In this document: positions 24,060 to 41,749 of the stretch, piece after piece
Layout: each line of letters opens with the position of its first letter
Numbering within the stretch: the stretch's first letter is position 1
Assembly: GCA_043800705.1 (NCBI GenBank)
Contig: JAZDMS010000035.1
Location: 2,579-66,578 of the forward strand
Reading direction: 5' to 3'
Origin: Candidatus Altiarchaeota archaeon
Lineage (GTDB): Archaea > Altiarchaeota > Altiarchaeia > IMC4 > SCGC-AAA252-I15
DNA length: 64,000 nt
Program-made: the position numbers and the translations under genes
The notes under the pieces: generated by a model
Database searches by the model: none
What the model saw: only the letters and a program-made list of their open reading frames with translations
What the model was told of the DNA's origin: nothing

Positions 24060-24068
24060 ATCAGATCA

Positions 24069-26164: not shown

Positions 26165-26214
26165 TTTTTTACCTCTCGATATCGATACGATGAAACTGAC
26201 TATAAGCATGTGGG

Positions 26215-26697: not shown

Positions 26698-27849
26698 TCA
26701 CCTCTTGAGCGGGCTTATGCGCCTGAGCCCCTCTACTTCCTGCTTGAGGACTTCGACCGCATAGTCGATGTCTTCTTCCTTCGTCTCGTGCCCTACGGTC
26801 ATCCTAAGGCTGCCATGCGATTCCTCTGCCGGAAGCCCGATTGCCGTGATTACGTGGCTCGGCTCCAGGCTCTGCGAAGAGCATGCCGAACCGGTTGAAC
26901 AATATATGCCCTTCGCGTCGAGGCGCAGGAGCAGCGACTCCCCTTCGATCGCCTTGAACGTGAAATTCGCGTTGTTTGCAAGCCTGCGCGTCGGGTGGCC
27001 GTTGAGCCTGACGGATCCGATGCCGCCGATCACGCCGCTGATGAGCCTGTCCCGGAGCACTCTCATCCGCTGCACATCCTGCGGGGTCGCAATATCCGCA
27101 GCCTTTGCGAAACCAACGATTCCTGCTACGTTCTCGGTGCCCCCCCGCATCTTTGACTCCTGCTGCCCCCCATGCTGTGTTGGGGTCAGCCTAATGCCTC
27201 GCTTCACTATAAGGGCGCCGACACCTTTGGGGCCGTTTATCTTGTGGGCGTTTATGCTCACCATGTCCAGGTCCATCTTCTTCAGGTCTATTTCCTCCTT
27301 CGTGAACGACTGGCAGGCGTCGGTGTGGAATGGGACGTTTTTTTCCTTTGCGGCCTTTGCGATCCCCGCTATGTCCTGCACCGTCCCGATCTCGTTGTTT
27401 GCGTGGCCGACCGTCACCAGTATCGTGTCCTTCCGTATCGCCTGCCGCACCTGCTCTGGGCTCACGGCCCCGTATTCGTCGACTGGGAGGTATGTGACCT
27501 CGAATCCCTGGATCTCAAGCCATTTGAGGGGATTGATGACGGAGCTGTGCTCTATGCGGGTCGTTATTATATGGGTCCCCATCTTCCTGTTCAGAAGCGC
27601 GATGCCCTTCAGCGCCAGGTTGTTGGATTCGGTCCCTCCCGAGGTGAACACGACCTCGCTGGGGTTTGCACCCACCAGACAGGCCAGCCTTGCCCTGCTT
27701 TCCTCGATCGCCTCGTATGCCTGCCTCCCAAGGGCATGCAGCGAGTTCGGGTTGCCATATCTTTCCCGAAAGTACGGCAGCATGGCTTCCAGCACCTCCT
27801 TGCGCAATGGCGTCGTAGCCGCGTTGTCCAGGTATATTTGCCTCATCAT
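26698..27849 (-). CDS. iscS: cysteine desulfurase NifS/IscS
   Basis: IYLDNAATTP, SINAHKINGPKG (PLP Lys), GSACSS (active-site Cys). The start is placed at ATGATG 27849 rather than the TTG used in the ORF track. Confidence 0.92.
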   Translation of the reverse strand: MMRQIYLDNAATTPLRKEVLEAMLPYFRERYGNPNSLHALGRQAYEAIEESRARLACLVGANPSEVVFTSGGTESNNLALKGIALLNRKMGTHIITTRIEHSSVINPLKWLEIQGFEVTYLPVDEYGAVSPEQVRQAIRKDTILVTVGHANNEIGTVQDIAGIAKAAKEKNVPFHTDACQSFTKEEIDLKKMDLDMVSINAHKINGPKGVGALIVKRGIRLTPTQHGGQQESKMRGGTENVAGIVGFAKAADIATPQDVQRMRVLRDRLISGVIGGIGSVRLNGHPTRRLANNANFTFKAIEGESLLLRLDAKGIYCSTGSACSSQSLEPSHVITAIGLPAEESHGSLRMTVGHETKEEDIDYAVEVLKQEVEGLRRISPLKR

Positions 27850-27860
27850 AACACCGTTAA

Positions 27861-27874
27861 TTAACAATTGTTAA
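27861..27874. promoter_or_regulatory. candidate operator TTAACAATTGTTAA (perfect palindrome) 11 nt upstream of the nifS ATG
   Basis: Seen directly. It overlaps a second palindrome, GTTAATTAAC. Related boxes lie at 32634, 41364 and 41437. Confidence 0.5.
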
Positions 27875-27931
27875 TATACTCACATATGTGGGAAAAGACA
27901 TTTAAGTACCCCCTAGTATCCTTTAGGTCAC

Positions 27932-28408
27932 CTAATTTAAAACGATGATGTTTGTGAGGCCCCTCCTTCTGCGCTCCAAGAGGCGCCTTGACTCGAGTGA
28001 GTCGAGCGTCCTCGTCACCCTGACCTTCGACCAGCCCAGCTTGTCCACTATGTCGCGCTGGAACATCGTGCCCGACGATTCGATTATGAGCCGGTAGACC
28101 TCCCGTTCCTCTGGGTCTAGCTTGCCTAGGTTCTTGTCCCAAGACGCTCTGCCATCGGCGGGTATGATGTCTTTCCCCTTCAAGGCGAGGACTGCGCCGA
28201 AGATGAAGAGGAGGGCGACTATCCCCGCACCGAAGTAAAAATAGTCCGGAATTGAGAACCGCCTCATCGTGCACGTATCCCCGCAGGTGCAGGAATCGTT
28301 CGCCGAGCCGGCCAGCCCGTCGAGAAAAAGGAAAAGCACAACAGACATGGACAGCGCCAAAATGACGATTACAAGGCCCAATTCGCGCACACCGAAACTT
28401 AATTTCAT
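27932..28408 (-). CDS. membrane-tethered winged-helix (MarR-like) regulator with a CxCxxxC motif
   Basis: Two TM segments flank SANDSCTCGDTCTMRRF. C-terminal HTH: EREVYRLIIESSGTMFQRDIVDKLGWSKVRVTRTLDSLESRRLLERRRRG. Confidence 0.6.
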   Translation of the reverse strand: MKLSFGVRELGLVIVILALSMSVVLFLFLDGLAGSANDSCTCGDTCTMRRFSIPDYFYFGAGIVALLFIFGAVLALKGKDIIPADGRASWDKNLGKLDPEEREVYRLIIESSGTMFQRDIVDKLGWSKVRVTRTLDSLESRRLLERRRRGLTNIIVLN

Positions 28409-28412
28409 AACA

Positions 28413-29291
28413 TCATGCCTCGCATTTCACCGCTTTCGACCCGGATAGCATCTTCACCAGCGCGCAGCTCCTGCAGACCTCGTTCGACGAGGGTTCTCCA
28501 CAAAGCCTGCAAGAGCGGACATTCGCTCCGCTGAAACCCCCCCTCAGGCTCGGCAGAGCCTCGACAAGGCCCCGCACCATAGACTCCTTGGTCCCGGGCA
28601 TCTTGGCCTCGAAGCCGTTCAGGTAGCCTTTGACCTCGGTCCTGTACGAGTCCAACGAGCAGGGGCATGGCTCGTATTGGACAGGGAACCCGCGTATCTG
28701 GGAGTATCTCTTGACTTCCTCTTCGAGGCAGAAGTAGAGGGGCTTGATCCTGGGAACGAACCGCTCGTCCGGGGCTATCCCGGACTTCGGCCCGCTCCGA
28801 GCCATTGCAGCTATGTCTCCCCGGACGTAGTTCATCAGAAGGGTCTGGGCCTCGTCGTCCATGTTGTGGCCTGTCGCGATCGACGTCGCCTTAAGCCGCT
28901 TAGCCTCCCTGTTGAGGATGTTGCGCCTGATGACCCCGCAGATGGTGCATGAGTTCATGTGTATCCCCTTCCCGTCGAGGACGGACTTCATGTAGCATAC
29001 GGAGCATCCGTAGAGGTCGCGCATGTGCACTACGTGCAGGACGATCCCGTTTTCTCTGCAGAACGCCTGGATGTTCCCGAGGTTCCGCCTGGAATGCTCG
29101 CCGAGAAGCTGGTCGATCGTGAGCCCTTCGACGACGTAGCCGAGCTTCTTTAGGAGATAGAGGGCGGTAGTGGAGTCCTTCCCGCCGGATACTGCGACAA
29201 GGACCTTCTCGCGAGGCTTCAGGAGACGATGATTCAGGATAGTCGAGCGGACCTTCGTTTCGAACCGGGAAATGAACTTTTTGTCGTCCAC
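28413..29291 (-). CDS. PP-loop ATPase, TtcA/TtuA/NcsA-family tRNA thiolase
   Basis: VLVAVSGGKDSTT (SGGxDS PP-loop) plus Cys pairs CSVC, CTIC and CRLCG...CRSC. Confidence 0.8.
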   Translation of the reverse strand: MDDKKFISRFETKVRSTILNHRLLKPREKVLVAVSGGKDSTTALYLLKKLGYVVEGLTIDQLLGEHSRRNLGNIQAFCRENGIVLHVVHMRDLYGCSVCYMKSVLDGKGIHMNSCTICGVIRRNILNREAKRLKATSIATGHNMDDEAQTLLMNYVRGDIAAMARSGPKSGIAPDERFVPRIKPLYFCLEEEVKRYSQIRGFPVQYEPCPCSLDSYRTEVKGYLNGFEAKMPGTKESMVRGLVEALPSLRGGFSGANVRSCRLCGEPSSNEVCRSCALVKMLSGSKAVKCEA

Positions 29292-29292
29292 G

Positions 29293-30684
29293 TCAAACCC
29301 TCTCGACGGTCGACGATCCGTCCTTCTGGTCCTTGATCTTCAAACCCCGTTTAAGGAGTTCGTCCCTCAACCGGTCGGATTCTACCCAGTTCTTCGCAGC
29401 CCTCTGGAGGTCCCTCTCTTTTATGAGACCTTTATCATCGTCTGTCAAGTCGATGCCCGAGCCAAGGCGTAGGCCCATTACCCCGAAGAGGTCGTCGAAT
29501 ACGGCCTCAGCAGCCGTCAGGGATTCCGGAGAGTCTCCGCCTGCGTCCAAGACCGCGTTTACATGCCGCACGGAGTCGAATAACGCCCCGACAGCCTGGG
29601 GCGTGTTGAAGTCATCGTCCATATGGGCATCGAACACCCCCCTGAGCCTCTGCACATCATCTTTCGCAGCCGACCCAGATCCCTTCGCTGACCGGATTGC
29701 AAAGGAGATCCTCGTTTTGAAATCCGCAAGCCGCTGCGCGGCCTTTTTCGCGTTTTCCACGTTCTGCGTGGAGTAGTCCACCGGACTTCGATAGTGTGTC
29801 TGCAATATGAAAAGCCGGAACGCGTCGGCGCTGTACGTCTTCAGGAACTCCCGGACTGCCAGGATGTTTCCGAGGCTCTTGCTCATCTTCTCCCCCGACG
29901 AATTGAGGAATCCGGTATGCATCCAGTACCTGACGAACGGCCTCTTCCCGGTCAACGCTTCGCTCTGTGCGATTTCGTTCTCGTGGTGGGGGAATATCAG
30001 GTCGAGGGCGCCGCCGTGGATGTCTATCTGGTCGCCGAGGTGCCTCTGGCTCATGACCGTGCATTCGATGTGCCATCCCGGGCGGCCTACCCCCCAGGGG
30101 CTCTCGAATCCGAGCTCGCCCTCCCCGGTCCTCTTCCAAAGCGAGAAATCCAGAGGCGTCCGCTTGTCTGGATCGGGCTCGACACGGTGCTGGCCAAGCT
30201 GCTTGGTATCCTGGTTGGATAGGAGGCCGTAGCCTTCTGCCTTGGAGACGTCGAAGTAGACGCCCTTTTCAGTCACGTAGGCTATGCCCTTGCGTATGAG
30301 CGCTTCTGTTGCGGCTATTATTCCGCCGATGTTCTCCGTGACCTTCGGATATGCGTCGGCTTCGAGGAGGCCGAGGCTTCTCTGGTCTTCGTATGCCCGC
30401 CTCGCATATTCCTTCGAAAGTTCGAGCGGCCTGGTATTCCGTTCCTTGGCCCGCTTGATGATCTTGTCGTCGACGTCGGTGACGTTCTGTATGTACCGGA
30501 CCCTGTAGCCGCGGTACCGCAGGTACCGGAGGATCGAATCGAACGCCACATAGGTCCTTGCATGGCCTATGTGCATGTCGTCGTAGACAGTGAGGCCGCA
30601 GATGTAGACCCGGACTTCCCCGTCTGTGAGCGGCTTGAAGTCTTCAGTCTTCCTCGTCAATGTGTTGTATACCCTGAGTGCCAT
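29293..30684 (-). CDS. cysS: cysteine--tRNA ligase
   Basis: HIGHARTYV (HIGH) and KMSKSLGN (KMSKS) motifs. 463 aa. Confidence 0.95.
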   Translation of the reverse strand: MALRVYNTLTRKTEDFKPLTDGEVRVYICGLTVYDDMHIGHARTYVAFDSILRYLRYRGYRVRYIQNVTDVDDKIIKRAKERNTRPLELSKEYARRAYEDQRSLGLLEADAYPKVTENIGGIIAATEALIRKGIAYVTEKGVYFDVSKAEGYGLLSNQDTKQLGQHRVEPDPDKRTPLDFSLWKRTGEGELGFESPWGVGRPGWHIECTVMSQRHLGDQIDIHGGALDLIFPHHENEIAQSEALTGKRPFVRYWMHTGFLNSSGEKMSKSLGNILAVREFLKTYSADAFRLFILQTHYRSPVDYSTQNVENAKKAAQRLADFKTRISFAIRSAKGSGSAAKDDVQRLRGVFDAHMDDDFNTPQAVGALFDSVRHVNAVLDAGGDSPESLTAAEAVFDDLFGVMGLRLGSGIDLTDDDKGLIKERDLQRAAKNWVESDRLRDELLKRGLKIKDQKDGSSTVERV

Positions 30685-30695
30685 TTAAAAAAATT

Positions 30696-30790
30696 AGCGA
30701 GGGAAGGGATTCGCACCCTTGGTGGTACGGTTTGCCGTGGCGTTTTTGGCCTTTGCAGACCGTTCTGTTGGGCTACTCCAGCACCCTCGC
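30696..30790 (-). tRNA. tRNA-Cys(GCA)-like gene with an insertion of about 20 nt 3' of the anticodon and a non-canonical T-loop
   Basis: Minus strand: GCGAGGG-TG-CTGG..CAG-A-ACGGT-CTGCAA-[AGGCCAAAAACGCCACGGCA]-A-ACCGT-..-AAGGG-TGCGAAT-CCCTT-CCCTCGC-T. The acceptor (7 bp), anticodon (5 bp) and T (5 bp) stems are perfect. The T-loop has G where U55 is expected, and the D-loop lacks GG. Folded by hand, not verified by software. Confidence 0.5.
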
Positions 30791-30877
30791 ATATGTATCA
30801 AATAACGTGTTGTGTTTTAAATGCCGGAGGTAAAAATCACGAAGCGATTTTATTGGACTCCAGCACCCTCGCATGCA

Positions 30878-30968
30878 GTTTTCTGTTTTCGGTTTTCCGT
30901 TTTCCGATGTCTTTATTAGACATTCATTATTTTTTAATGCCCGAAACCGGAGACTGGAAACTGAAAAC
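30878..30968. repeat. inverted arrays of four GTTTTCN heptamers flanking a small palindrome
   Basis: GTTTTCT GTTTTCG GTTTTCC GTTTTCC, then GATGTCTTTATTAGACATTC, then ...CCGAAAC CGGAGAC TGGAAAC TGAAAAC. The right arm ends 1 nt before the cysE stop codon. Confidence 0.6.
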
Positions 30969-30969
30969 A

Positions 30970-31572
30970 TCATATGTTCCACTCCGGCGGTTTTTCCCCG
31001 GCCTCTTTGGGGTCTTTGTATCTTACGTAGGCCCCTTCGACGATGCGCAGCTGTCCTTTTGAGGTGACTACTGTGGAGTCTTCGGGGATGTCGTCGATTA
31101 TGACCGTGTGCGCCCCGATTCTGCTGTTTTTCTTCACTATTACGGGGCCGAGTATGGCTGCTCCTACGCCGATGGTGACGTTGTCTTCGATGGTGGGGTG
31201 TCTTTTGTTGCCTTTTTTGTCCCTCCACCAGCCGTGTCCTCCCAGTGTGACGCCGTGGTAGAGCATGACGTTGTCTCCTATCTCCGTCGTTTCCCCGATG
31301 ACTACCCCGGTGGCGTGGTCGATGAAGAACCGTTTCCCTATCTTCGCTGCGGGGTGGATCTCCGCGCCCGTGAGGAAGCGGCCGAGGTAGGATATCGCCC
31401 TTGGTATGAACGGGAGGCCTATGCTGTGCAGGGCGTGTGATATCCGGTAGAGGATTATGGCCTGTACGCCGGGGTACAATACCACTTCCAGGAAGTTTAT
31501 CCCCTTCTTGAGCGCAGGGTCCTTTTCGTATGCCACCTGGAAGACGTCGAACATCCTATTTCCTCTCCTCAT
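30970..31572 (-). CDS. cysE: serine O-acetyltransferase
   Basis: Hexapeptide-repeat core [43 protein letters not shown]. Confidence 0.9.
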
Positions 31573-32488
31573 ACAGCGGTGTCGAAAGGTATCTTTCGCC
31601 GGTGTCGGGGACGATGACCAATACGCGTTTTCCTTTTCCGAGCCGTTTAGCGACCGCCAGTGCCGCCCATACGTTCGCTCCGGAGGATATGCCTGCGAGG
31701 ATTCCCTCCTCCTTCGCCAGCCGCTCCGATGTCTTGTACGCGTCCTCGTTCTTCACCTGTATCACTTCGTCGACCAGCTCCTTCCGGTATATGTCCGGGA
31801 CGAATCCGGCCCCAATGCCCTGTATCTTGTGGGGGCCTGGTTGTCCTCCCGAGAGGACGGGGGAGTCTGCGGGCTCGACTGCGATGAATCTTGCGTTGAT
31901 GAATTTCTTCTTGAAGAAGGTCGCTATTCCGGTTATCGTCCCTCCTGTTCCGACTCCGGCGACGAATGCGTCGAATGAGCCGACTTCCGCCATTATCTCC
32001 TGCGCCGTTGTCTCGATGTGGGCTTTGATGTTGGCCTTGTTCTTGAACTGCTGGGGGATGAAGATGTGCGGCCCTTCCTTGGCGATCTCCTCGGCCTTGG
32101 CTATCGCGCCTTTCATCCCCTTTGCACCCTCAGTCAGGATGAGCTCGGCTCCGAATGCCTTCAGTATCTTCCGTCTCTCCAAGCTCATCGTCTCCGGCAT
32201 CGTCAGCTTAAGCCGGTATCCTTTGACTGCCGCGACCATGGCAAGCCCTATTCCCGTGTTGCCAGAGGTGGGCTCGACTATGATGCTTTCCTTCTTCAGG
32301 ACGCCCGCCTTCTCGGCTTCCTCGATCATGTACAATGCTATCCGGTCCTTCACCGAGGAGCCGGGGTTGAAGTATTCCAGCTTGGCTACCACTTCCGCGT
32401 CGTTTGGGCCGGGCAGCCTGTTGAGTCTCACGTGGGGTGTTCCGCCTATCGTCTCCAGTATGTTGTTTTTGATCGTCATTTGATTCAC
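31556..32488 (-). CDS. cysK: cysteine synthase (O-acetylserine sulfhydrylase)
   Basis: NPGSSVKDR (PLP Lys), [22 protein letters not shown]. Confidence 0.93.
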
Positions 32489-32633
32489 CTCTTTGTTATG
32501 CGTGTGGATATAAAAATCAAAGTTCGTATTGTGTCCGGGTTTTTGTTTTGTGTCAGGCGTTTATAGCCTACACTGGCAGAAACAACAGCCGCATGAGCGG
32601 GCCGTGAATGCAGTTATTCCCAGATCCATTTTG

Positions 32634-32647
32634 TTAACGATTGTTAA
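32634..32647. promoter_or_regulatory. candidate operator TTAACGATTGTTAA in the cysK/thiI divergent region, 4 nt before the thiI ATG
   Basis: Seen directly. It also reads as the direct repeat TTGTTAA-CGA-TTGTTAA. Confidence 0.45.
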
Positions 32648-32651
32648 TATT

Positions 32652-33833
32652 ATGGTGGTCCCATATAAATACTCACCCAGAGTTAATCTTAAAGTGGACT
32701 TCGACTGCATCCTCATTAGATACGGGGAAATAGGCCTGAAAGGCGGGAATCGGGGATTTTTCGAAAGGAAGCTCCAATCCAACATCGTTTGGGCGCTTAA
32801 GCGGGAGGGCGCCGTCTACGAAGTCGTGAAGAGGGTCCAGGGAAGGTTTCTCGTCGTATCAAAGGACGCCAAGGCTCTAGAGGCGGTAAGGAACGTCTTC
32901 GGGATAGTCTCATACAGTCCGGCCAATATGGTAGGATGTGGGGTTGAGGAGTTGTGTGAGGCAGCCGTGAAGATAGTGGTCGCCTCGAAGCCCGATTCGT
33001 TCAGGGTAACGACGCAGAGACTGGACAAGAGGATGGATACGACCTCACAGAAGATCAACGAGGCCGTCGGGGCCGGGATCGTCGCGAGGACCGGTGCCAA
33101 AGTCAGCCTAAAGTGCGCCAAATTGGATATCGGATTGGATGTCACCGGCGACTGCGCATACATCTTCACTGAAACGTTCGCAGGGCTCGGAGGCCTTCCA
33201 GTCGGCGTCTCGGCAAGGGTGCTGTGCCTCCTTTCCGGGGGTATCGACAGCCCGGTCGCCGCATGGCTGATGATGAAGAGGGGGTGCCAGGTTACGCTGG
33301 TCCATTTCATGCACGAGCAGGGGTGCAGGCTGCCTACGAAGATAGAGTGCCTTTATCGGTCCCTTTGCAGGTTTGGCCCCGGCCTCAGGCTGATAGTCGT
33401 CCCTGCCGCGGAGCTTGAGCGGGAGATCATCATGAAGGCGCCTTCGAAGGACAGGATAGTCATACTAAGGAATATGTTCCTCAAGGCTGCGGTGAAGCTA
33501 CTGCGCTCCGAGAGGGCCCACGCCATCGTCACCGGAGACAACGTGGGACAGGTGGCGTCGCAGACGATAGAGAACATGGAGGCTTATCAGGCAGGCATCG
33601 ACGCCCTCGTCCTGAGGCCGCTGGCATGCTATGACAAGCAGGAGATAATTGATCTGGCCAGGAGGGTCGGGACCTTCGAGGAGTCGACGTCCGCTTACGT
33701 CGACTGCTGCAGCTTCCTCGTCCCGAAGCATCCGCAGACGAAGGCCACCGCGGAGGATGTGGATTCGTCGGTCAGGTCCATGGACGAGGGCATATTGGAC
33801 CTGATTCTCTCGAAGATGATTTTCATCGATTAG
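32652..33833 (+). CDS. thiI: tRNA 4-thiouridine synthase ThiI (THUMP + PP-loop)
   Basis: ILIRYGEIGLKGGNRGFFE and LLSGGIDSPVAAW (PP-loop). The start is placed at ATG 32652 (MVVPYKYS). Confidence 0.88.
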   Translation: MVVPYKYSPRVNLKVDFDCILIRYGEIGLKGGNRGFFERKLQSNIVWALKREGAVYEVVKRVQGRFLVVSKDAKALEAVRNVFGIVSYSPANMVGCGVEELCEAAVKIVVASKPDSFRVTTQRLDKRMDTTSQKINEAVGAGIVARTGAKVSLKCAKLDIGLDVTGDCAYIFTETFAGLGGLPVGVSARVLCLLSGGIDSPVAAWLMMKRGCQVTLVHFMHEQGCRLPTKIECLYRSLCRFGPGLRLIVVPAAELEREIIMKAPSKDRIVILRNMFLKAAVKLLRSERAHAIVTGDNVGQVASQTIENMEAYQAGIDALVLRPLACYDKQEIIDLARRVGTFEESTSAYVDCCSFLVPKHPQTKATAEDVDSSVRSMDEGILDLILSKMIFID

Positions 33834-35077
33834 TCCGTGAGCCTTTTTTCGCCTTCCAGGAGCCTGATGCCGGTGGCGTCCTGGGCGACTTCGAGCATTC
33901 CACGGTATCTTCCGTCACTGCCCCGTAATGCGAAGAAGCGGAGGCATACGAATTTCCCCCGAAGCTGGAGCCAGTACTCGTCCGCGTCTTTCTGCCCGGA
34001 CTTGAACTCCTCAATGAGCCTGTTGAGCGCCTTGCCGGCCTTGGCCGGATACATGCTCTGGATCCTTGAGCCGATAGAGTCAGGGTTCCTTGCCGTGATC
34101 CTTTGTCTGGTCCCCTGGTTGTAGTAGACCACTATGTCGTTCTCGTCGACGAATGTCACGTCCAAGGGGAGGCTCTTGAGCAGGAGATTGACCTGTTCGT
34201 GCGTCAGGTTGCCGACATCCATATCGAGGCCTCCTGTGACTTGGACCCTGTCCGATGGCTTCGGCATGAATCCGTCCAGGGGGGACCCGTCTGATTGGGA
34301 CACATCTGCGGGGCGGATGCTGTCCCATTCATCAGCTGACATCAGGCTCAAAGCGCCGGGCAATAGGCTGTATTCCTCCTTCTTGATCTGGTCGCGCATT
34401 GTATGCATGAGGCGCCTAAGGGTCGTGATCGATGCGGGAGCAGACTCGTTCACCTGCTTCTTGGCGAGCCGCAGAAGGGTTCTTGCGTCCTCCTCCCGGG
34501 CCCTCAGGCCTTTCATAGGCTCGACGTAGCCCTTCGATTCCAGGATCGGGAAAAGCCGGGCTTCCAGGTTGGCATAATGCTCGACGTTTTCGGATAGCCG
34601 CTCGATATGCTTTGCAAGGACGTGCTTGACCGCGGAGAACGTCTTATTGTCCCATGTCCCGACAGCTCCGACGAGGCCGTCTATTTCCGACATGACCTTC
34701 TGCGCCTGTGCGTTCTCCGAAAGGTATGTGTCGATTAGGTGGCCTTGCGGGGCTTGAACTTTGACGCCCGCCTTCTCAGCGGCCTGGAAGACGTCCAGCG
34801 GCTTTGGGCCCTCTGCATGGGGGGCAATATTCCCAGCGCCTTTGCCCCCTTCGTTCCTTTGTATCTCGCCATTAAGTGCCCGGATGAGGTTTGCGACGTC
34901 GACGCCGCCCATACCCGCAAGCTCCTGGAGGGTGGCGATGTTCCCCATGGTCTTCCTCACGAGAGGATTGCGCAGACGGTCGTATTTTGGCGAGACGTTC
35001 AGGAGGAAATCAAGGAGGTAGGGATATTTCAGGAACAAGGCCCCCATCTTAGTCTCAGGTGCAAGGTCCACGGACAA
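33830..35077 (-). CDS. DUF1858/hemerythrin-like/DUF438/PAS protein
   Basis: N-terminus LFLKYPYLLDFLLNVSPKYDRLRNPLVRKTMGNIATLQELA (DUF1858-like). C-terminal PAS-like part (VTFVDENDIVVYYNQG...RFFALRGSDGRYRGMLEVAQD). Start uncertain: TTG 35077, GTG 35071 or ATG 35047. Confidence 0.7.
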   Translation of the reverse strand: MSVDLAPETKMGALFLKYPYLLDFLLNVSPKYDRLRNPLVRKTMGNIATLQELAGMGGVDVANLIRALNGEIQRNEGGKGAGNIAPHAEGPKPLDVFQAAEKAGVKVQAPQGHLIDTYLSENAQAQKVMSEIDGLVGAVGTWDNKTFSAVKHVLAKHIERLSENVEHYANLEARLFPILESKGYVEPMKGLRAREEDARTLLRLAKKQVNESAPASITTLRRLMHTMRDQIKKEEYSLLPGALSLMSADEWDSIRPADVSQSDGSPLDGFMPKPSDRVQVTGGLDMDVGNLTHEQVNLLLKSLPLDVTFVDENDIVVYYNQGTRQRITARNPDSIGSRIQSMYPAKAGKALNRLIEEFKSGQKDADEYWLQLRGKFVCLRFFALRGSDGRYRGMLEVAQDATGIRLLEGEKRLTD

Positions 35078-35093
35078 GATTATGAACCGAAGA

Positions 35094-35792
35094 TTATAAG
35101 CCCTCGGCCATGCTGTCAAGGAGCAGGAAAATGAGCCTTTTGGTCTCGCTGGTCCTCCAGGCATTGGTAAGGATCCCGTAAGGAGTACCTACGTATCTTC
35201 CGGGGACCAAGTCATCAGCAGATTCTGTTGCCATGGTCCGGACGTCCTGCATTGAGTATTCCAGGTGAAACTGTAGGCCGACGACTTTCCCGTCCAAGCC
35301 TTCGAATGCCTGGTTTGCGCAGGCCTTGCTCGCCGCGGTCCTCGTGCAGCCTTCAGGTATCGTGAATGTGTCTGCGTGCCAGTGCATAGGCCGGAATTTT
35401 TCCGGAAATCCCGCGAATGCCCGTGAACGGCGTCCTTCATCGGTGATGGATGTCTCATGCCAGCCGATCTCCCGTTCATTATTGCGGGTGACTTTCCCCC
35501 CAAGGATTATTGACAGAAGCTGCGCCCCCAGGCAGACTCCGAGGACGCATTTTTTCGCATCAACGGCCTCCGCCAGGAAAGTCTTCTCTCTGGCAAGCCA
35601 GGCGTGCTTCTCATCTGCGTAGGCGTTCATAGGGCCGCCCAAAACAGCAATCAGGTCGAAATCACCCACCAGGGGCAGTGATTCCCCAAGGTATAGGCGC
35701 GTGCATGCCGTCTTATGTCCCCTCTCCCTTGCCCAGGCGGCGATGTTAGCCGGCCCTTCGTTGGGGACATGCTGCAGGAGATGTACATTCAT
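35094..35792 (-). CDS. class I glutamine amidotransferase-like protein
   Basis: VLGVCLGAQLL nucleophile elbow and HWH...FHLE. GuaA-N-like size. Confidence 0.8.
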   Translation of the reverse strand: MNVHLLQHVPNEGPANIAAWARERGHKTACTRLYLGESLPLVGDFDLIAVLGGPMNAYADEKHAWLAREKTFLAEAVDAKKCVLGVCLGAQLLSIILGGKVTRNNEREIGWHETSITDEGRRSRAFAGFPEKFRPMHWHADTFTIPEGCTRTAASKACANQAFEGLDGKVVGLQFHLEYSMQDVRTMATESADDLVPGRYVGTPYGILTNAWRTSETKRLIFLLLDSMAEGL

Positions 35793-36100
35793 TGGCGTAT
35801 CATTACCAATAGCATCTTGAACCTTTTTATCGCCTTAAGCGCGTGGGTTTTGTTCGCCGGCATGATTATGTATTCGCCTGCCTTCAGCGTATGTGGCGTT
35901 CCGGCGATTGAGACCTCGGCCTCTCCGTCAAGGACCTGGACGAATGCGTCGAACGGGGCTGTGTGCTCGGACAGGCCCTGGCCGGCGCCGAATGCGAACG
36001 ACGTTATCGACCCCGCCTGCTTGTCGATTATTTCCCTGCTGATTATCGAATCGTCCTGGTAGTCGAGTTCCAGACGCCCCGGTTTCCCTGCCTGCATCAT
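35789..36100 (-). CDS. cupin domain protein
   Basis: GLSEHTAPFDAFVQVLDGEAEVSIAGTPHTLKAGEYIIMPANKTHALKA. Confidence 0.75.
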   Translation of the reverse strand: MMQAGKPGRLELDYQDDSIISREIIDKQAGSITSFAFGAGQGLSEHTAPFDAFVQVLDGEAEVSIAGTPHTLKAGEYIIMPANKTHALKAIKRFKMLLVMIRQ

Positions 36101-36318
36101 ACGGCCACCACAGACCGCACCTTAGGCACTACAGCCCTTATGTGCCGCTCTATCCCGTGCTTCAGGGTCATCTGGCTCATCGGGCATCCGCAGCATCCGC
36201 CGGTGAGGCGGACTTTCACGACTCCGTCCTCGGACACTTCGACCAGTTCCACTCCTCCGCCGTCGGCCTCCAGCATCGGCCTCACTTCCCCCAACGCCTT
36301 CTCAACTTCTTCTTTCAT
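36097..36318 (-). CDS. NifU C-terminal (Nfu-type) Fe-S carrier domain protein
   Basis: MKEEVEKALGEVRPMLEADGGGVELVEV...LTGGCCGCPMSQMTL. Its ATGA start overlaps the stop of 36315..37199. The longer ORF 36097..36684 is an artefactual extension. Confidence 0.8.
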   Translation of the reverse strand: MKEEVEKALGEVRPMLEADGGGVELVEVSEDGVVKVRLTGGCCGCPMSQMTLKHGIERHIRAVVPKVRSVVAV

Positions 36319-37199
36319 TTTTCCCATTCCTCCGAGAGTATCTCTCCCCTTATGCTCACGATTATCGATTTTATCGGAACCTTCCTCTTCGCCTGCGATG
36401 CGGCCCCCTTTACCAGGTGAACCAGTCCTCCGCAGCATGGGACCTCCATCATCACGACAGTGAGGGTGTTGACTTTCGCGTCGTCGATGAGGGATGCTAT
36501 CTTTTGGGCATAAACGTCCTGGTCTGAGTCCAGTTTCGGGCATGCTATGGCGATGCTCCTGCCGGAGAGTATCCTGCCGTGGAATCCTCCGAGCGCGTAT
36601 GCGGTGCAGTCCGCGGCGATGACCACGTCCTTCCCTCGGTAGTATGGCGCCTGCGGCGAAACCAGATGCAGTTGGATAGGCCATTGGCGAAGCTGCGACG
36701 ACGTGTCGCCGGTCTCATCGCCCCCTGTTTTCCGGTCTTCGGTCTTCGGTCCTCCGTCTTCAGTCTCGAAGCTCACCATCCTCGACCCCGGACAGCCTCC
36801 GCCGTCTGAGGGGCAGCCTCCACCCGAACCGTGCAGGTCCGGGGCCGGTATCCCCTTGTCCTTCAATGCGGCAAGTGCCTCCTTTAGGTAGCCGAATTCG
36901 CCGTGCTCCTTCAGGTGGATGAGATGCGCCTTGATCGTGTTCGGTCCTGCCTTAATGATGTTCTCCATGACCTTCTTCTCCTCGTACGGCTTCGCATCCC
37001 GCTCCACAACCTTCATAGCCCCGGTGGGGCAGTGGCCCACGCATGCGCCAAGGCCGTCGCAGAACAGGTCGCTTATGAGCCGCGCCTTCCCATCTATTAC
37101 CTGGAGCGCACCTTCAGGGCAGTTTGGGATGCATTGCCCGCATCCGTTGCATTTGTCCTCTTCGACCGCTATGATCTTCCGTTTAGCCATTTTTCCCAC
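36315..37199 (-). CDS. 4Fe-4S dicluster domain protein with an uncharacterised Cys-rich C-terminal domain
   Basis: CNGCGQCIPNCP and CDGLGACVGHCP ferredoxin motifs. C-terminus contains IACPKLD and EVPCCGGL. Confidence 0.75.
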   Translation of the reverse strand: MGKMAKRKIIAVEEDKCNGCGQCIPNCPEGALQVIDGKARLISDLFCDGLGACVGHCPTGAMKVVERDAKPYEEKKVMENIIKAGPNTIKAHLIHLKEHGEFGYLKEALAALKDKGIPAPDLHGSGGGCPSDGGGCPGSRMVSFETEDGGPKTEDRKTGGDETGDTSSQLRQWPIQLHLVSPQAPYYRGKDVVIAADCTAYALGGFHGRILSGRSIAIACPKLDSDQDVYAQKIASLIDDAKVNTLTVVMMEVPCCGGLVHLVKGAASQAKRKVPIKSIIVSIRGEILSEEWEK

Positions 37200-37530
37200 C
37201 CATCCTGACGCATTTTCCCCCTCCGGCGAGTATGCCGCACTGGCAGAGGTCTCCCCCGAATTCTCCCATATAGGAGTCTATGGAAGCCAGTAAAGGTGAG
37301 GCGAATCTATCGTCGAGCGAGTAAAGGACATTCTTTCCTTCCCGCCTGGATGCGACAAGGCCCCATGCGTCAAGGAGCGCGAGACTGTGACTTATCCGGC
37401 TCTGCTCGAGACCCGTCTTTTTGCATATTTCCGATACATTTTTTGGTCCACCCCTCAGGGATGAGACAACGGAAAGCCGGGTGCGGTTGCCCAACGCCTT
37501 GAAGAAGAGTTCATATGAACATTTTTTCAT
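37183..37530 (-). CDS. ArsR/SmtB-family transcriptional regulator
   Basis: FKALGNRTRLSVVSSLRGGPKNVSEICKKTGLEQSRISHSLALL. Confidence 0.85.
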   Translation of the reverse strand: MKKCSYELFFKALGNRTRLSVVSSLRGGPKNVSEICKKTGLEQSRISHSLALLDAWGLVASRREGKNVLYSLDDRFASPLLASIDSYMGEFGGDLCQCGILAGGGKCVRMGGKNG

Positions 37531-37589
37531 ATGAGTATAATGGTTCCGGAAGATATTTATGGAGTGCAGTAACCGTGCGGTAATCGTCC

Positions 37590-38147
37590 TCAGATCTTCT
37601 GGGCCTTGTCTGCGGCTTCGATCACAAGGTTCACTACGTTCACCAGTGTCTTCTTGTCCTTAACAGACCCGTTGTCGACATAGGATATGTCGTGCCTTCC
37701 GATGGTGAACCCTATTCCGCACGAGGTTATCTTCCCCTGCATGTCGGCGTCCAGATATCTTTTAACCGTCTCAGGGTCTCCGCCTTTTACCCTGAATCTG
37801 CCCATGAACTCCGGGTTGACGCATTCGAATTTCATGAAACCCGGCTTCCTTGCGGCACCGGCCAGGTAGTCGGCCTTCCCGACGGTGAATCCCTCTCCGA
37901 CGTTCCCGTTGTGGATTACCCGTACCCGAAGAGAAACGCCGACAGTGTCGATGATAACCTCGAATCCTCGGATGTGGCCGTTGGCCCTCGACGCGCCCAT
38001 GAACTGCGACGAGTAGGCGAGGCCGAGCTCTGATGCGACGGATTTTATGAGGCGGCCGCGGCCGCTTGCGCGAAACGCCTTCAATGCGATGAGAGACGCG
38101 ACTGCCGCTATCGCAGCCAATGCTATAAGACCGATGTCCATTGCCAC
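37590..38147 (-). CDS. N-terminally anchored hypothetical protein
   Basis: TM segment MAMDIGLIALAAIAAVASLIALKAF. No recognisable domain. Confidence 0.5.
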   Translation of the reverse strand: MAMDIGLIALAAIAAVASLIALKAFRASGRGRLIKSVASELGLAYSSQFMGASRANGHIRGFEVIIDTVGVSLRVRVIHNGNVGEGFTVGKADYLAGAARKPGFMKFECVNPEFMGRFRVKGGDPETVKRYLDADMQGKITSCGIGFTIGRHDISYVDNGSVKDKKTLVNVVNLVIEAADKAQKI

Positions 38148-38227
38148 GGATAGTACTTCGGAGTGTATATTAAAGTCTTGTATGTTACCGGGTGGAAACC
38201 CTTTAATGTAATAATCTTCCCGCCATC

Positions 38228-38635
38228 ATGGTTGACATGGATGGGTCAATCGCCATTTCGCTCGTAATGGCGGTCGCAGCGGCTTCGGGCTGTATCTCAT
38301 CCGGGGGCGTTTACGATGTTAGCCTGCATGAGGGAAGGAGCATTATAGATGACAACAGGGGAAACCCTGATTTCGTCATCCTGGACGTGCGTACTCCCGA
38401 AGAGTACTCGGCTGGCCATATTGAGGGGGCAGTGCTTTTGGACTTTGAGGCCGATGACTTCAAACAGAAGGCCGATGGGCTGCCGAGGCAGAAGACATAT
38501 ATAGTATACTGCAGGAGCGGCCGAAGGAGCGCTGAGGCCGTCAATGCATTGTCCGGGCTGGGTTTCAGGGACCTCCACAACATGAGGGGCGGGATAACGG
38601 AGTGGAAGGCAGAGGGGTACCCCACAGTCAGTTAG
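38228..38635 (+). CDS. rhodanese-domain sulfurtransferase (lipoprotein-like signal)
   Basis: VILDVRTPEEYSAGHIEGA, active-site loop YCRSGRRS, and AAASGC lipobox. Confidence 0.85.
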   Translation: MVDMDGSIAISLVMAVAAASGCISSGGVYDVSLHEGRSIIDDNRGNPDFVILDVRTPEEYSAGHIEGAVLLDFEADDFKQKADGLPRQKTYIVYCRSGRRSAEAVNALSGLGFRDLHNMRGGITEWKAEGYPTVS

Positions 38636-38751
38636 GCTTTTTATCATCTGGCATGAGTCCGTGCAGGAGCCATCCCTTCGCCCCCGGTTTGCACGGGGCA
38701 TTTCTTTTCTCGCATCTTCCATCGAGCTCATGTGGGCAGCTCCAGGCCATC

Positions 38752-39885
38752 TTACCGTTCTAGGGCGTTCTTTTCTAGAAAGTCGACGAGGACGTTGCCG
38801 AGGGTGTTGTTGTAGACGAGGAATGCGTCGTGGCCGTATGGGAGGTCCAGTTTCCGGTAGACTGATGGGACTCCCGCCTCCGCGAGCCCTGCGAAAACCT
38901 CCTCGACCTGCTGCGGCGGATAAAGCCAGTCCGACGTGAATGAGACCAGCAGCACCTTCGCCTTGACCGTCTTGAACACGTCCTTCAGATCCCTCCTTCC
39001 GCCTTCGGTGAGGTCGAACTGGTCTATTGCGTTCGTGATGTAGAGGTAGCTGTTGGCGTCGAACCTGCGCACGAAGCTCTTGCCGTTGTAGTCGAAGTAG
39101 CTTTGCAGCTCGTACTCTATCCCGAACTTTTTCTTTCCGTTCTTCCCCTTAACCTTCTCCCTGCCGAACTTCTTAAGGAGGGTCTCCTGGCTGAGGTATG
39201 TGACGTGCCCGATCTGCCGCGCCAGCGACAGGCCGCGCTTCGGCTGCCCCCTCGGGTAGTAGTTGCCTCCGTTGTAGTCGGGGTCGGAGAGGATTATCCT
39301 CCGGCCTATGTCGTTGAAGACGAACCCTATAGGGTACTGCTTCGCCGACGCTGCGACGACTATGGCGGACTTCACGCTGTCAGGGTAGTCGACGGCCCAC
39401 TGCAGCGCCTGCATCCCGCCCAGGCTGCCGCCGGTGACGCAATGCAGTTTCTTTATTCCAAGATGGTCGATGAGCTGCTTCTGCGCGCGGACGATGTCGC
39501 GGACGGTGATTATCGGGAAGTCGAGGCCATATGGTTTCCGTGTCTTGGGATTTATGGAAGACGGGCCGGTCGAGCCCCTGCATCCGCCTATGACGTTCGA
39601 GCAGATGACGAAGTATTTTCTCGTATCGAAGGACTTCCCAGGGCCGACTGCCACATCATACCAGCCGTGCTTACTGGATCCGATCCTGCTCTTTCCGGCG
39701 GCGTGGGCGTCTCCCGACAGGGCGTGGCAGAGGAGGATGACATTGGTGCGCTCAGCGTTGGGTTTCCCGTATGTCTCGTACGCTATCCGGACGGGAGCCA
39801 GCTTTTCGCCGCTATCGAGCGCGAGCTCCGGGAATTCCCAGTATTTTGTCTTCACGACCCCTACAGATCCGTGCCTTCTTGCCAT
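38752..39885 (-). CDS. metX: homoserine O-acetyltransferase
   Basis: ILLCHALSGDAHAAG and GGSLGGMQALQW (nucleophile elbow). The start is placed at the internal Met MARRHGSVGV. The upstream part of the track ORF overlaps a better small ORF in another frame. Confidence 0.9.
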   Translation of the reverse strand: MARRHGSVGVVKTKYWEFPELALDSGEKLAPVRIAYETYGKPNAERTNVILLCHALSGDAHAAGKSRIGSSKHGWYDVAVGPGKSFDTRKYFVICSNVIGGCRGSTGPSSINPKTRKPYGLDFPIITVRDIVRAQKQLIDHLGIKKLHCVTGGSLGGMQALQWAVDYPDSVKSAIVVAASAKQYPIGFVFNDIGRRIILSDPDYNGGNYYPRGQPKRGLSLARQIGHVTYLSQETLLKKFGREKVKGKNGKKKFGIEYELQSYFDYNGKSFVRRFDANSYLYITNAIDQFDLTEGGRRDLKDVFKTVKAKVLLVSFTSDWLYPPQQVEEVFAGLAEAGVPSVYRKLDLPYGHDAFLVYNNTLGNVLVDFLEKNALER

Positions 39886-39896
39886 CTTCTTTCCCC

Positions 39897-40037
39897 CTAA
39901 CAGCCGCATGATATGCGGCCTTTTAATTGTGCCCCACAATGCCAGCATCTGCCCGTGGTGACCGCGATGTGCCGGAATATGCATCCATGGCAGTTGTCGC
40001 AGACAACCTCCTGAGGCTTCTTTTCCTTCGTTGTCAT
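39897..40037 (-). CDS. 46-aa zinc-ribbon peptide between metY and metX
   Basis: Hand translation: MTTKEKKPQEVVCDNCHGCIFRHIAVTTGRCWHCGAQLKGRISCGC. GGAGGT lies 8 nt upstream of the ATG. It is below the ORF-track cut-off. Confidence 0.4.
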   Translation of the reverse strand: MTTKEKKPQEVVCDNCHGCIFRHIAVTTGRCWHCGAQLKGRISCGC

Positions 40038-40041
40038 CTTT

Positions 40042-41334
40042 CTATACCTCCTTCAAGGCTCCGTCCAAGTCGGCGGTTATGTCGTCGACGTTCTCGAGGC
40101 CTATAGACAGCCGGACCAGGTCGGGGGTGATGCCGCCCTCCAGGAGCTGTTTCTCAGATAGCTGGCTGTGTGACGTGCTTGCCGGATGCAACGCAAGGCT
40201 CTTCGCGTCGCCGACGTTCGCCAGATGCGAGAACAGCTTCAGACCGTTTATCAGCTTCTCGCCGGCCGGCCTTCCTCCTTTGACGCCAAAGACGATCACT
40301 CCGCCGTATCCCTTCTTCAGGTACTTCTTGGCATTGTCATGTGTCGGGTGCGTGTCGAGGCCGGGGTATTTGACCCAGGTCACTTTGTCGTGGGCTTCGA
40401 GGTGTTCCGCGACCTTCAGGGCGTTCTGACTGTGCCGCTCTAGCCGCAGGTTCAGGGATTCCAGCCCCTGCAGGAATATCCACGAGTTGTCCGGGCTTAT
40501 GCAGCCGCCGAGGTTCCGTAAGGGGACCAGCCTCATTCGGAGTATGTATGCCAGGGGGGTCAACGGGCCGAGGTCGAACGCGTATCTGAGGCTGTGGTAG
40601 CTCGCGTCCGGTTCCGTAAGGAGCGGGTGTTTCTTCGATTTGCTCCAGTCGAATCTCCCGCTGTCGATGACCGCGCCGCCTATCGCAGTCCCGTGTCCGC
40701 CTATCCACTTCGTCAGCGAATGGGCGACTATGTCCGCTCCGTGCTCGATCGGGCGCAGAAGGTACGGCGTCGTGAATGTGCTGTCTATGATGTAGGGTAT
40801 GCCGTTGTTGTGGGCGATGTCCGCCAGCTCCTTGAAGTCGGGGACGTTCAATGCCGGATTTCCGATTGTTTCCGTGAATAGCGCCTTCGTCTTCGGCGTG
40901 ATCGCCTTCTTCGCCTTGTCCGGGTCAGTTGGGTCGAAGAAGTTCGTCCTTATCCCAAAGTCGGGGAGGATGTTGTTGAACTGGGTATAGGTCCCCCCGT
41001 ACAGGTCGTTGGCTGACGCTATCTCGTCGCCGACCCTCGCAAGGTTGATTATGCTGTAGAAAATCGCAGTAGTGCCGGACGATAGCGCCAGCCCTCCGAC
41101 TCCGCCTTCAAGGGCGGCTAGGCGTTTTTCAAGCACATCGGTGGTCGGGTTCATGAGCCGGGTGTATATGTTCCCGAGCTCCTTCAGCCCGAACAGGTTC
41201 GCGGCGTGCGTTGCGTCCTTGAAGACATAGCTCGACGTCCTGTGAACGGGCACCGCCCTCGCCAGAGTCGTGGGGTCTACTTCCTGACCTGCATGAATTG
41301 CCTTCGTTTCGAATTTTTTATCCTCTTGCGCCAT
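40042..41334 (-). CDS. metY: O-acetylhomoserine sulfhydrylase (PLP-dependent)
   Basis: FETKAIHAGQ and HSLTKWIGGHG (PLP Lys). 430 aa. Confidence 0.92.
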   Translation of the reverse strand: MAQEDKKFETKAIHAGQEVDPTTLARAVPVHRTSSYVFKDATHAANLFGLKELGNIYTRLMNPTTDVLEKRLAALEGGVGGLALSSGTTAIFYSIINLARVGDEIASANDLYGGTYTQFNNILPDFGIRTNFFDPTDPDKAKKAITPKTKALFTETIGNPALNVPDFKELADIAHNNGIPYIIDSTFTTPYLLRPIEHGADIVAHSLTKWIGGHGTAIGGAVIDSGRFDWSKSKKHPLLTEPDASYHSLRYAFDLGPLTPLAYILRMRLVPLRNLGGCISPDNSWIFLQGLESLNLRLERHSQNALKVAEHLEAHDKVTWVKYPGLDTHPTHDNAKKYLKKGYGGVIVFGVKGGRPAGEKLINGLKLFSHLANVGDAKSLALHPASTSHSQLSEKQLLEGGITPDLVRLSIGLENVDDITADLDGALKEV

Positions 41335-41363
41335 TTTCGTTTTACCTCCAACAATCCGTGGAG

Positions 41364-41376
41364 TAACAATCGTTAA
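41364..41376. promoter_or_regulatory. candidate operator (TTAACGATTGTTA on the metY strand) just downstream of a TATA-like box
   Basis: Minus strand: ATATTTATATAAGAC-TTAACGATTGTTAC-...-GGAGGTAAAACGAAA-ATG. Confidence 0.45.
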
Positions 41377-41436
41377 GTCTTATATAAATATCTTTCGTTT
41401 TTTTTATGCAGATTAGCATAACTTATGCATATTAAA

Positions 41437-41450
41437 TTAACTATTGTTAA
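41437..41450. promoter_or_regulatory. candidate operator TTAACTATTGTTAA 8 nt upstream of the HTH gene
   Basis: CATATTAAA-TTAACTATTGTTAA-GTCTATAG-GTG. Confidence 0.45.
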
Positions 41451-41458
41451 GTCTATAG

Positions 41459-41749
41459 GTGAAACTTCCATGTGAACAGGCATTGTGGTACGTCCTTCCG
41501 CAGATACGCGCGGACATAGCAAGGGAACTCATCGAGAGGGGGATGAACCAAAAGCAGGCTGCGAAGAAGCTGGGCGTCACTCCGTCTGCCGTCTCCCAGT
41601 ACCTGAACAAGAAAAGGGCAGGCAAGCTTAAGCTGCCGGCAGACTACTCCAGCCTGATCAAGGATGCAGTAGAGGACATCATCAAGAACGAAGACGACGA
41701 GGTGCTGTCCGTAACGATCTGCAAATGCTGCGCCAAATCCAGAGGCTGA
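41459..41749 (+). CDS. small HTH transcriptional regulator with an N-terminal Cys and a C-terminal CxCC
   Basis: GMNQKQAAKKLGVTPSAVSQYLNKKR helix-turn-helix. Cys residues occur in KLPCEQ and TICKCCAK. GTG start as in the ORF track. Confidence 0.65.
   Translation: MKLPCEQALWYVLPQIRADIARELIERGMNQKQAAKKLGVTPSAVSQYLNKKRAGKLKLPADYSSLIKDAVEDIIKNEDDEVLSVTICKCCAKSRG

Follow-up and report, generated by a model that had tools for sequence, protein, structure and literature searches.

The 64,000-nucleotide (nt) stretch of the Candidatus Altiarchaeota archaeon studied here (positions 2,579 to 66,578 of the 96-kb contig JAZDMS010000035.1 in assembly GCA_043800705.1; hereafter the window) carries the sulfur-metabolism genes nifS-iscU, cysK-cysE, metY-metX, and thiI, a tRNA-Cys gene, and a gene for a small helix-turn-helix (HTH) protein with four conserved Cys residues (Table 1). 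A palindromic box of the form TTAAC-N4-GTTAA lies in the promoter regions of nifS, cysK, metY, and the HTH gene, and a short Cys-rich open reading frame (ORF) follows the box upstream of cysK. As set out below, the box is probably the operator of the HTH protein, which would repress nifS-iscU, cysK-cysE, metY-metX, and its own gene.

A palindromic box at four intergenic sites

TTAACNATTGTTA occurs without mismatch at 27861-73 (on both strands), 32634-46 (plus strand), 41364-76 (minus strand), and 41437-49 (plus strand). Exact matching and ORF distances bear out the four occurrences, their sequences, and their distances from genes as given in a preliminary description of this DNA, with the start of thiI as the exception. 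The pattern TTAAC-n-AT-n-GTTAA occurs 4 times in the 64-kb window against 0.00 expected from window shuffles, and a search allowing up to three mismatches found no further window sites with two or fewer mismatches besides the four loci. A symmetrised matrix from 41 Altiarchaeota sites, which reads T-TAAC-n-AT-n-GTTA-A, gives the four window boxes 26.3, 24.2, 23.2, and 20.6 bits; no other sequence in the 64-kb window scores above 8 bits, a gap of 12 bits between the four boxes and the next-best score. All four boxes are intergenic, though long ORFs cover about 91% of the window. Among sites, the half-sites, whose centers are 9 bp apart, are invariant while the flanks diverge, and no repeated flanks common to the sites were found.

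Table 1. Positions in the window of the boxes, the leader elements, and the genes discussed in the text
Feature	Positions	Strand	Description
Box 1, candidate nifS-iscU operator	27861..27874	both	Perfect palindrome TTAACAATTGTTAA; 11 nt before first nifS ATG
Box 2, candidate cysK-leader promoter operator	32634..32647	.	TTAACGATTGTTAA; 4 nt before leader ATG
Box 3, candidate metY-metX operator	41363..41376	-	TTAACGATTGTTAC (metY strand); ~29 nt before metY ATG; Shine-Dalgarno (SD) sequence GGAGGT
Box 4, candidate autoregulatory operator	41437..41450	.	TTAACTATTGTTAA; 8 nt before HTH GTG start
N3-type half-site pair	27848..27860	-	TTAACGGTGTTAT (TTAAC-N3-GTTA type); abuts box 1, overlaps nifS start codon
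HTH_3 (XRE-type) protein, candidate cognate repressor and sensor	41459..41749	+	96 amino acids (aa); Cys5, C88-x-C90-C91
Leader ORF	32561..32629	-	MDLGITAFTARSCGCCFCQCRL, then stop; upstream of cysK; ATG 4 nt after box 2
RNA hairpin	32550..32573	-	GUGUAGGC-UAUAAAC-GCCU(G)ACAC; leader stop codon in loop
nifS	26698-27849	-	NCBIfam TIGR03402, 2.7e-150
iscU	26226-26693	-	Pfam NifU_N, 1.6e-44
cysK	31556-32488	-	TIGR01139, 2.1e-133
cysE	30970-31572	-	TIGR01172, 3.9e-57
tRNA-Cys(GCA)	30696-30790	-	Between cysE and cysS; 20-nt intron after anticodon loop
metY	40042-41334	-	TIGR01326, 3.9e-186
metX	38752-39984	-	NF001209, 1.2e-140
thiI	32694..33833	+	Deposited annotation, 379 aa (P0202); box 2 neighbor

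Conservation and promoter positions of the box

Starting from an alignment of homologues of the HTH protein, we fetched 80 loci from species-representative genomes, 15 of them from Altiarchaeota and the rest from Chlorobiaceae, and added further loci from ThiI and NifS homologues (loci from relatives carry L numbers below; W stands for the window). All 15 Altiarchaeota regulator loci contain the box, and some 200 kb of Altiarchaeota loci hold 41 sites with at most one mismatch, compared with about 1 expected by our estimate. Nearly all of these sites are intergenic and occupy fixed promoter positions of orthologous genes. Phylogenetic footprinting, which the preliminary description had called for, thus finds the box at the same promoter position for metY-metX in 8/8 loci, the cysK-cysE leader in 14/14, nifS-iscU in 5/5, and the regulator gene in 16/17 (counting a variant with a 3-nt spacer). 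The motif therefore recurs both at functionally linked genes and at their orthologues, and it is scarce in coding sequence and unrelated genomes, as far as the 64-kb window and 295 kb of control loci show; these controls, 80 unrelated NifS loci among the metagenome matches listed, contain 0 boxes. The nifS gene of Candidatus Altiarchaeum hamiconexum has no box, and a metagenome scan with ThiI gave no matches. Additional boxes in relatives precede genes for a 4Fe-4S protein and a CDGSH Fe-S protein, and in L016 (1710-1802) a box with its own TATA stands 4 nt ahead of the tRNA-Cys gene, which would place tRNA-Cys in the regulon.

At nifS, box 1 and the TATA-like TATATTAA (27871-27878, minus strand) overlap, and a leaderless transcript is predicted; leaderless promoters, with the TATA about 24 to 35 nt before the start codon, are common in the window. 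Counterparts of box 1 lie upstream of nifS in L001, L167, L168, and L170, so that a box immediately precedes the start codon in all five loci, including L168, where the upstream neighbor is different. The half-site pair that abuts box 1 is identical in L167 and reads TTAACAGTGTTAA in L168. It belongs to a second type of site that has the same half-sites and a 3-nt spacer (TTAAC-N3-GTTAA) and is also found upstream of the regulator gene in L001, L003, L005, L006, L008, L016, and L084.

Box 2 lies 16 nt downstream of the TATA-like TATTTATA (32664-32671, read on the minus strand), and in 14/14 cysK loci the box is 15 to 16 nt downstream of the TATA and 145 to 200 nt upstream of the cysK ATG. The place of cysK-cysE among the targets, which had been put forward only as a possibility, is firm, the order of TATA, box, and leader recurring in all relatives. 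Box 3 is mismatched at its outermost base, and 4 nt upstream of it is TTTATATA (41381-41388), the order being metY TATA ATATTTATATAAG, GAC, box; a strong TATA (TATTTATAT) followed after 3 to 4 nt by the box is found in seven of the eight metY loci. Box 4 directly follows the TATA-like ATATTAAA (41429-41436), and the regulator transcript is again predicted to be leaderless. The order TATA, box, 7 to 9 nt, start codon is shared by W, L002, L004, L007, L009, L010, L011, and L035, while other regulator promoters have the TTAAC-N3-GTTAA variant or a more distant N4 box. Overall, in the 16 positive loci the regulator gene has a box of either spacing no more than about 100 nt upstream of it, regardless of whether the divergent neighbor is metY, cysK, the gene for the CDGSH protein, or another gene.

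Taken across promoters, the palindrome abuts or closely follows TATA-like sequences at conserved spacing (0 to 4 nt at metY, the regulator gene, and nifS; 15 to 16 nt at cysK), with the start codon or the leader ORF directly next, and the conserved sites either fall in the interval from the TATA to the predicted transcription start or overlap these elements. Archaeal repressors that block recruitment of TATA-binding protein (TBP) and transcription factor B (TFB) or of polymerase, such as MDR1, LrpA, NrpR, Phr, and TrmB, occupy such positions. The geometry fits an autoregulated repressor, and the repressor-type placement next to TATA boxes that had been noted from the window recurs, on predicted starts, at nifS, the cysK leader, metY, and the regulator gene.

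The case of thiI is different. The preliminary description had thiI begin 4 nt after box 2, but the deposited annotation starts ThiI at GTG 32694, 46 nt past the box, and the family model aligns from five residues later, so the ATG next to the box is probably not the thiI start. The TATA-like TATAAATA (32664-32671) lies 30 nt upstream of this GTG, a leaderless geometry, and the thiI transcript is probably leaderless from that element. With these positions, box 2 falls upstream of the thiI TATA. On the opposite strand, this TATA and box 2 make up the cysK-leader promoter that all relatives share. Moreover, thiI has a box only where it is divergent from cysK and has none where it is not, as in L086 (from the same metagenome-assembled genome [MAG] as L010) and L035. 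We therefore reject thiI as a conserved target and regard it as a neighbor; of the regulon proposed earlier, nifS-iscU, cysK-cysE, metY-metX, and the regulator's own gene stand, each with conserved boxes, and thiI does not.

A four-Cys HTH_3 protein as the candidate regulator

The protein encoded next to box 4 matches the Pfam domain HTH_3 (PF01381) with 34.6 bits against a cutoff of 23 (E value, 2e-08) and agrees in every residue with the 96-aa product of the MAG annotation (100% identity). No NCBIfam model matched it, nor did any subfamily-specific Pfam or NCBIfam model. An AlphaFold2 model (mean predicted local distance difference test [pLDDT], 78.8) is compact and all-helical, with five helices that include an HTH. 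C.Esp1396I, KorB, and XRE proteins came out best in the fold comparison, none of them at an E value of 0.001 or below, and sequence and fold searches of the PDB returned generic HTH similarity only.

Among homologues, C88, C90, and C91 are invariant and at least 90% of the sequences have C5; C88 and C91 form a CxxC. The protein thus has three to four conserved Cys, the number of ligands expected of an Fe-S-cluster transcription sensor. A profile search found 2130 representatives at an E value of 0.001 or below, 723 of them at 1e-10 or below. The family members are mostly 95 to 130 aa long, with an N-terminal P-C-E, an AAVSQY recognition helix, a CxxC tail, and often extra Cys or His residues. 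Their source names are just "XRE family" or "helix-turn-helix domain-containing," and the cluster names of distant members were uninformative. Judged by these sequences, the N-terminal Cys and the C-terminal CxxC/CxCC extension define a separate, unnamed subfamily of HTH_3.

The Chlorobiaceae homologues (L012-L083) have 52 to 59% identity and the same four Cys, and the recognition-helix residues T41, A44-Y48, K52, and R53 are invariant across the set, Chlorobiaceae included. In the 300 nt upstream of the Chlorobiaceae gene, TAAC-N3/4-GTTA is enriched 40- to 60-fold and clusters at -120 to -140, with the N3 type dominating in Chlorobaculum; this enrichment provides independent support for the link between the protein and the half-sites. 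The Chlorobiaceae homologues lie upstream of resB-ccsA-dsbD and near bshC and are often divergent from a gene for a small CxxCH heme-binding protein. Their identity and setting suggest transfer of the regulator between domains, with what would be a different regulon in Chlorobiaceae.

Proposed mechanism and alternatives

Because the box stands at Cys, Met, and Fe-S promoters and also at the gene for a four-Cys HTH protein, it is most likely that protein's operator. In a dimer of the regulator, each TTAAC half-site would receive one recognition helix. Since the sites lie over or just downstream of the TATA and over the predicted start, the bound protein should block TBP/TFB or RNA polymerase and would in this way repress nifS-iscU, the cysK-cysE cluster, metY-metX, and its own gene. 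The regulator lacks a ligand-binding domain and has the conserved Cys5 and CxCC, so its signal is most likely read via thiols. We favor an Fe-S cluster, or a sulfide- or persulfide-dependent state, that would report sulfur sufficiency, because conservation of the box singles out the two sulfide-consuming steps, the desulfurase/scaffold pair, and tRNA-Cys. Sulfur assimilation and Fe-S assembly would thereby come under negative feedback, and the protein would be a functional analogue of IscR or McbR on an unrelated scaffold.

Several points weigh against this reading. The promoter geometry is based throughout on TATA-like sequences and predicted starts, and the existence of two spacing variants, N4 and N3, would be unusual for a single rigid dimer. 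Confidence in the structure model is low for the N-terminal Cys segment (pLDDT of ~55). At thiI, the position of box 2 upstream of the TATA would suit activation over repression. Two other regulators are encoded locally, a DUF7343/MarR-like protein (27932-28408) and an ArsR-type protein (37183-37530). In Chlorobiaceae, the gene precedes resB-ccsA-dsbD rather than sulfur-assimilation genes. Finally, the scan covered the 64-kb window and, in relatives, about 200 kb surrounding these genes, and the off-target frequency of the box is known for that DNA only.

The Chlorobiaceae context bears most directly on the nature of the signal: it raises the prospect that what the family senses is thiol redox state or metal, not sulfur supply. 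The operator, repressor, and regulon would then be as proposed, with the Cys residues sensing thiol oxidation or a thiophilic metal (Cu or Zn, in the manner of CopY), and derepression would replenish thiols and repair Fe-S clusters under stress. The function of resB-ccsA-dsbD in thiol-disulfide chemistry and cytochrome c maturation agrees with such a signal, as do the HMA, DsbD_2-cupredoxin, and P-type ATPase genes in conserved synteny 3' of nifS-iscU, and in having a C-terminal Cys cluster the small repressor is reminiscent of CopY itself. We nonetheless consider this version rather unlikely, given that the sulfide-consuming CysK and MetY steps and tRNA-Cys fit control of supply better and that Altiarchaeota and Chlorobiaceae live strictly anaerobically in sulfidic habitats, where thiols seldom come under oxidative stress. 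There is a smaller chance that the box is bound by one of the two other local regulators, the HTH_3 gene being just a member of the regulon. The end of the DUF7343 gene is 57 nt away from box 1, and synteny of the gene extends to L001, L010, and L084/L167; a DUF7343 gene also lies 3' of a distant family member in L081. Yet the box tracks the HTH_3 gene in 16/17 loci, even on short contigs with no DUF7343 or ArsR gene nearby, the nifS box of L168 is present without a DUF7343 neighbor, and similar inverted repeats stand ahead of the bacterial homologues.

It is likewise improbable that the factor is an activator or dual regulator, switching genes on under sulfur limitation, for example. The placement of a box 16 nt upstream of the thiI TATA is of the activator type, and several regulator promoters have boxes 45 to 100 nt upstream of the start, but in nearly all loci the metY, nifS, regulator, and cysK-leader boxes show the occlusion geometry described above, and thiI does without a box whenever it is not next to cysK. 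Least credible of all, to the point of being nearly negligible, is the idea that no regulator is involved and that the box arose by chance as an AT-rich palindrome, was left behind by a mobile element, or belongs to the core promoter as a specialised element. A sequence that abuts the TATA and is AT-rich like archaeal promoters invites that suspicion; against it, the spacing to the TATA varies (0 to 4 versus 15 to 16 nt), the half-sites stay invariant while their flanks diverge, the box is limited to one functional gene set, none is expected in shuffles, and there are no shared repeated flanks. The repressor reading, with the HTH_3 protein as the binding factor, thus remains the one that we prefer.

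A Cys-rich leader ORF and hairpin upstream of cysK

The cysK promoter has a further feature. An ATG ORF of 18 to 25 codons is present in 14/14 cysK loci (the window, L001, L003, L007-L011, L015, L016, L035, L060, L084, and L085) and begins 1 to 5 nt after the box in 13 of them and 38 nt after it in L007. Cys accounts for 48 of the 313 leader residues (15.3%, versus 1.6% in window proteins), and 47 of these 48 are within the last ten residues. The N-terminal parts of the leader peptides are unrelated among loci, whereas the tails are Cys-rich and usually end in C-Q-C-R-(V/L/A).

The final codons of the leader form the 5' arm of an RNA hairpin with the stop codon in its loop, which stop-codon-anchored folding and pair counting recovered in 12/12 loci tested, with z scores from -1.2 to -6.3. 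Four positions of the stem show compensatory changes, A-U/C-G/U-A and G-C/C-G/U-A/A-U among them. MAFFT alignments of the whole cysK leader and of the hairpin segments misaligned the variable loops, and RNAalifold on the MAFFT alignment was uninformative. Downstream of the hairpin are a conserved CGGAC box, a U5 run in the window (32512-32516), and a conserved SD sequence, AAGGTGAT, ahead of cysK. By reading of the sequences, 12 of the 14 leaders have a U5 to U9 run; by inspection, a helix between the Cys tract and GGAC is possible in about 9 of the 14. The leader folds contain no consistent SD-sequestering helix of the mycobacterial kind, and Rfam has no family for the leader or for anything else in the 26- to 42-kb region.

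The leader is therefore a short ORF rich in cognate codons, which are the only ones conserved, with an RNA structure coupled to it, as in attenuators. Together with the hairpin, it is a candidate Cys-tRNA-sensing attenuator in an archaeon. It would add a second, independent layer of control to the cysK cluster, in which ribosome stalling on the leader probably senses Cys-tRNA(Cys). The controlled step may be termination at the U-run, as the U-run suggests, or translation of cysK, and the direction of the response is likewise inferred. Transcription-translation coupling exists in Archaea. Two other Cys-rich short ORFs of the window were dismissed: 41342-41419 starts upstream of the metY TATA, and 58981-59049 lies inside repeats of tRNA-Arg fragments.

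The closest parallels are the polycysteine leaderless short ORFs of mycobacteria, where stalling of ribosomes at Cys codons lifts the attenuation (bioRxiv 10.1101/834739). Like the leader described here, the ORFs of this mycobacterial "Cys ribulon" stand at the extreme 5' ends of cysteine-metabolism transcripts, have clustered conserved Cys codons with nothing else conserved, and are proposed to sense by ribosome pausing (bioRxiv 10.1101/834739). The Altiarchaeota leader differs in belonging to an archaeon, in confining its Cys to the last ten codons, in placing its stop codon within a covarying hairpin, in having a U-run and no evident duplex in its folds that would sequester the ribosome-binding site, and in being combined with a protein operator. 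Our literature search found no report of a leader-peptide attenuator in Archaea.

At its broadest, the proposal is that two devices new to Archaea are stacked here, a four-Cys HTH_3 mini-repressor that would read sulfur, Fe-S, or thiol status, shared with green sulfur bacteria that have a similar TTAAC/GTTAA operator, and a Cys-tRNA-sensing leader attenuator ahead of cysK-cysE-tRNA(Cys)-cysS. We offer this full combination tentatively, as a possibility that may well not hold in all its parts.

Relation to known regulators

The nearest functional counterpart in Fe-S metabolism is the bacterial Rrf2 protein IscR, also an autoregulated, Cys-ligated sensor, which represses a desulfurase/scaffold operon via a promoter-overlapping palindrome in an Fe-S feedback loop. 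The Altiarchaeota protein differs in being a 96-aa HTH_3 protein that would act on archaeal TATA/TFB promoters, in having a regulon that also takes in Cys and Met synthesis, and in that its cluster is only proposed. Neither Pfam nor NCBIfam gave an Rrf2 match to it, and the likeness to IscR is one of functional analogy. On the side of sulfur assimilation, McbR (a TetR-type protein of Corynebacterium) and the master regulators CymR and CysB resemble the proposed system in their regulons (metY, metX, cysK, cysE), autoregulation, and palindromic operators. They sense S-adenosylhomocysteine or O-acetylserine through ligand-binding domains or partner proteins, whereas the protein described here has an HTH and a Cys motif only, and they belong to other protein families and another domain of life.

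Among archaeal factors, SurR of Thermococcales comes closest, with a CxxC switch linked to sulfur and a motif of GTT/AAC triplets. SurR is, however, an ArsR-like double winged-helix protein of ~230 aa that binds GTTn3AAC and controls hydrogenase and S0-reduction genes. The half-sites here stand in the reverse order (TTAAC-N4-GTTAA), the protein is of the HTH_3 type, and biosynthetic genes are its proposed targets; searches of the PDB with the regulator, by sequence and by fold, returned no SurR match. The earlier remark that the box is not the SurR motif is therefore upheld by the order and spacing of the half-sites as well as by the protein. XRE/Cro-type HTH_3 repressors share the PF01381 domain, a palindromic operator, and autoregulation, to which Cys5 and the CxCC are added here.

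Neither for cysteine/methionine synthesis nor for Fe-S assembly has an archaeal master regulator been defined, to our knowledge and in the literature searched. The devices proposed here, an autoregulated repressor with its operator and a leader-peptide attenuator, are of known kinds; what would be new is the use of an uncharacterised Cys-HTH family and their occurrence in a domain without a described regulator of either function. The protein, operator, and regulon form a concrete set that can be tested in vitro without cultivation, and they give a first functional handle on a large, unnamed family of Cys-containing HTH proteins of archaea and Chlorobiaceae. The leader ORF and its hairpin are a testable candidate for amino-acid-sensing attenuation in an archaeon. 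If the proposal is true, this would be the first leader-peptide attenuation system of the archaeal domain, Cys-rich leader control being so far known only from bacteria.

Neighboring genes and minor observations

The genes 3' of cysK-cysE on the same strand are those for tRNA-Cys, CysS, a TtuA-like protein (tRNA thiolase), and a DUF7343 protein, and the order cysK-cysE-tRNA(Cys)-cysS is found in several relatives. ARAGORN and Rfam overlooked the window tRNA-Cys gene, which came to light on alignment with intron-free tRNA-Cys genes from relatives. At 30857-30872, 82 nt upstream, 16 nt of its 5' end are repeated (GCGAGGGTGCTGGAGT).

On the minus strand at 21873-26693, nifS-iscU is followed by a gene for an HMA-DsbD_2-cupredoxin membrane protein, with a heavy-metal P-type ATPase next by synteny with relatives. 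This order is kept in L167, L168, and L170, and these genes may be coregulated with the Fe-S genes. The DUF7343/MarR-like protein encoded on the minus strand just upstream of the nifS box is membrane anchored. Convergent with thiI, a minus-strand gene (33830-35164) encodes a DUF1858-hemerythrin-PAS protein that may be a sensor of O2/NO or iron. The ArsR-type gene, also on the minus strand, stands ahead of a gene for a 294-aa 4Fe-4S protein (36315-37199), and the L001 orthologue of the latter has its own box.

Several hundred bases at 13454-14100 have no convincing ORF and could contain a noncoding RNA. Weak box-like sequences in this long noncoding stretch, at 13622 and 13658, were judged to be chance, the N3-type match at 13658 being too weak to count as significant. 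Around the tRNA-Arg(GCG) gene (58738-58809), the region 58600-59130 contains four copies of the tRNA's own 3' end (AATCCCGACGTGGGCG) and two of its 5' half; these fragment repeats look like traces of repeated integration at the tRNA gene.

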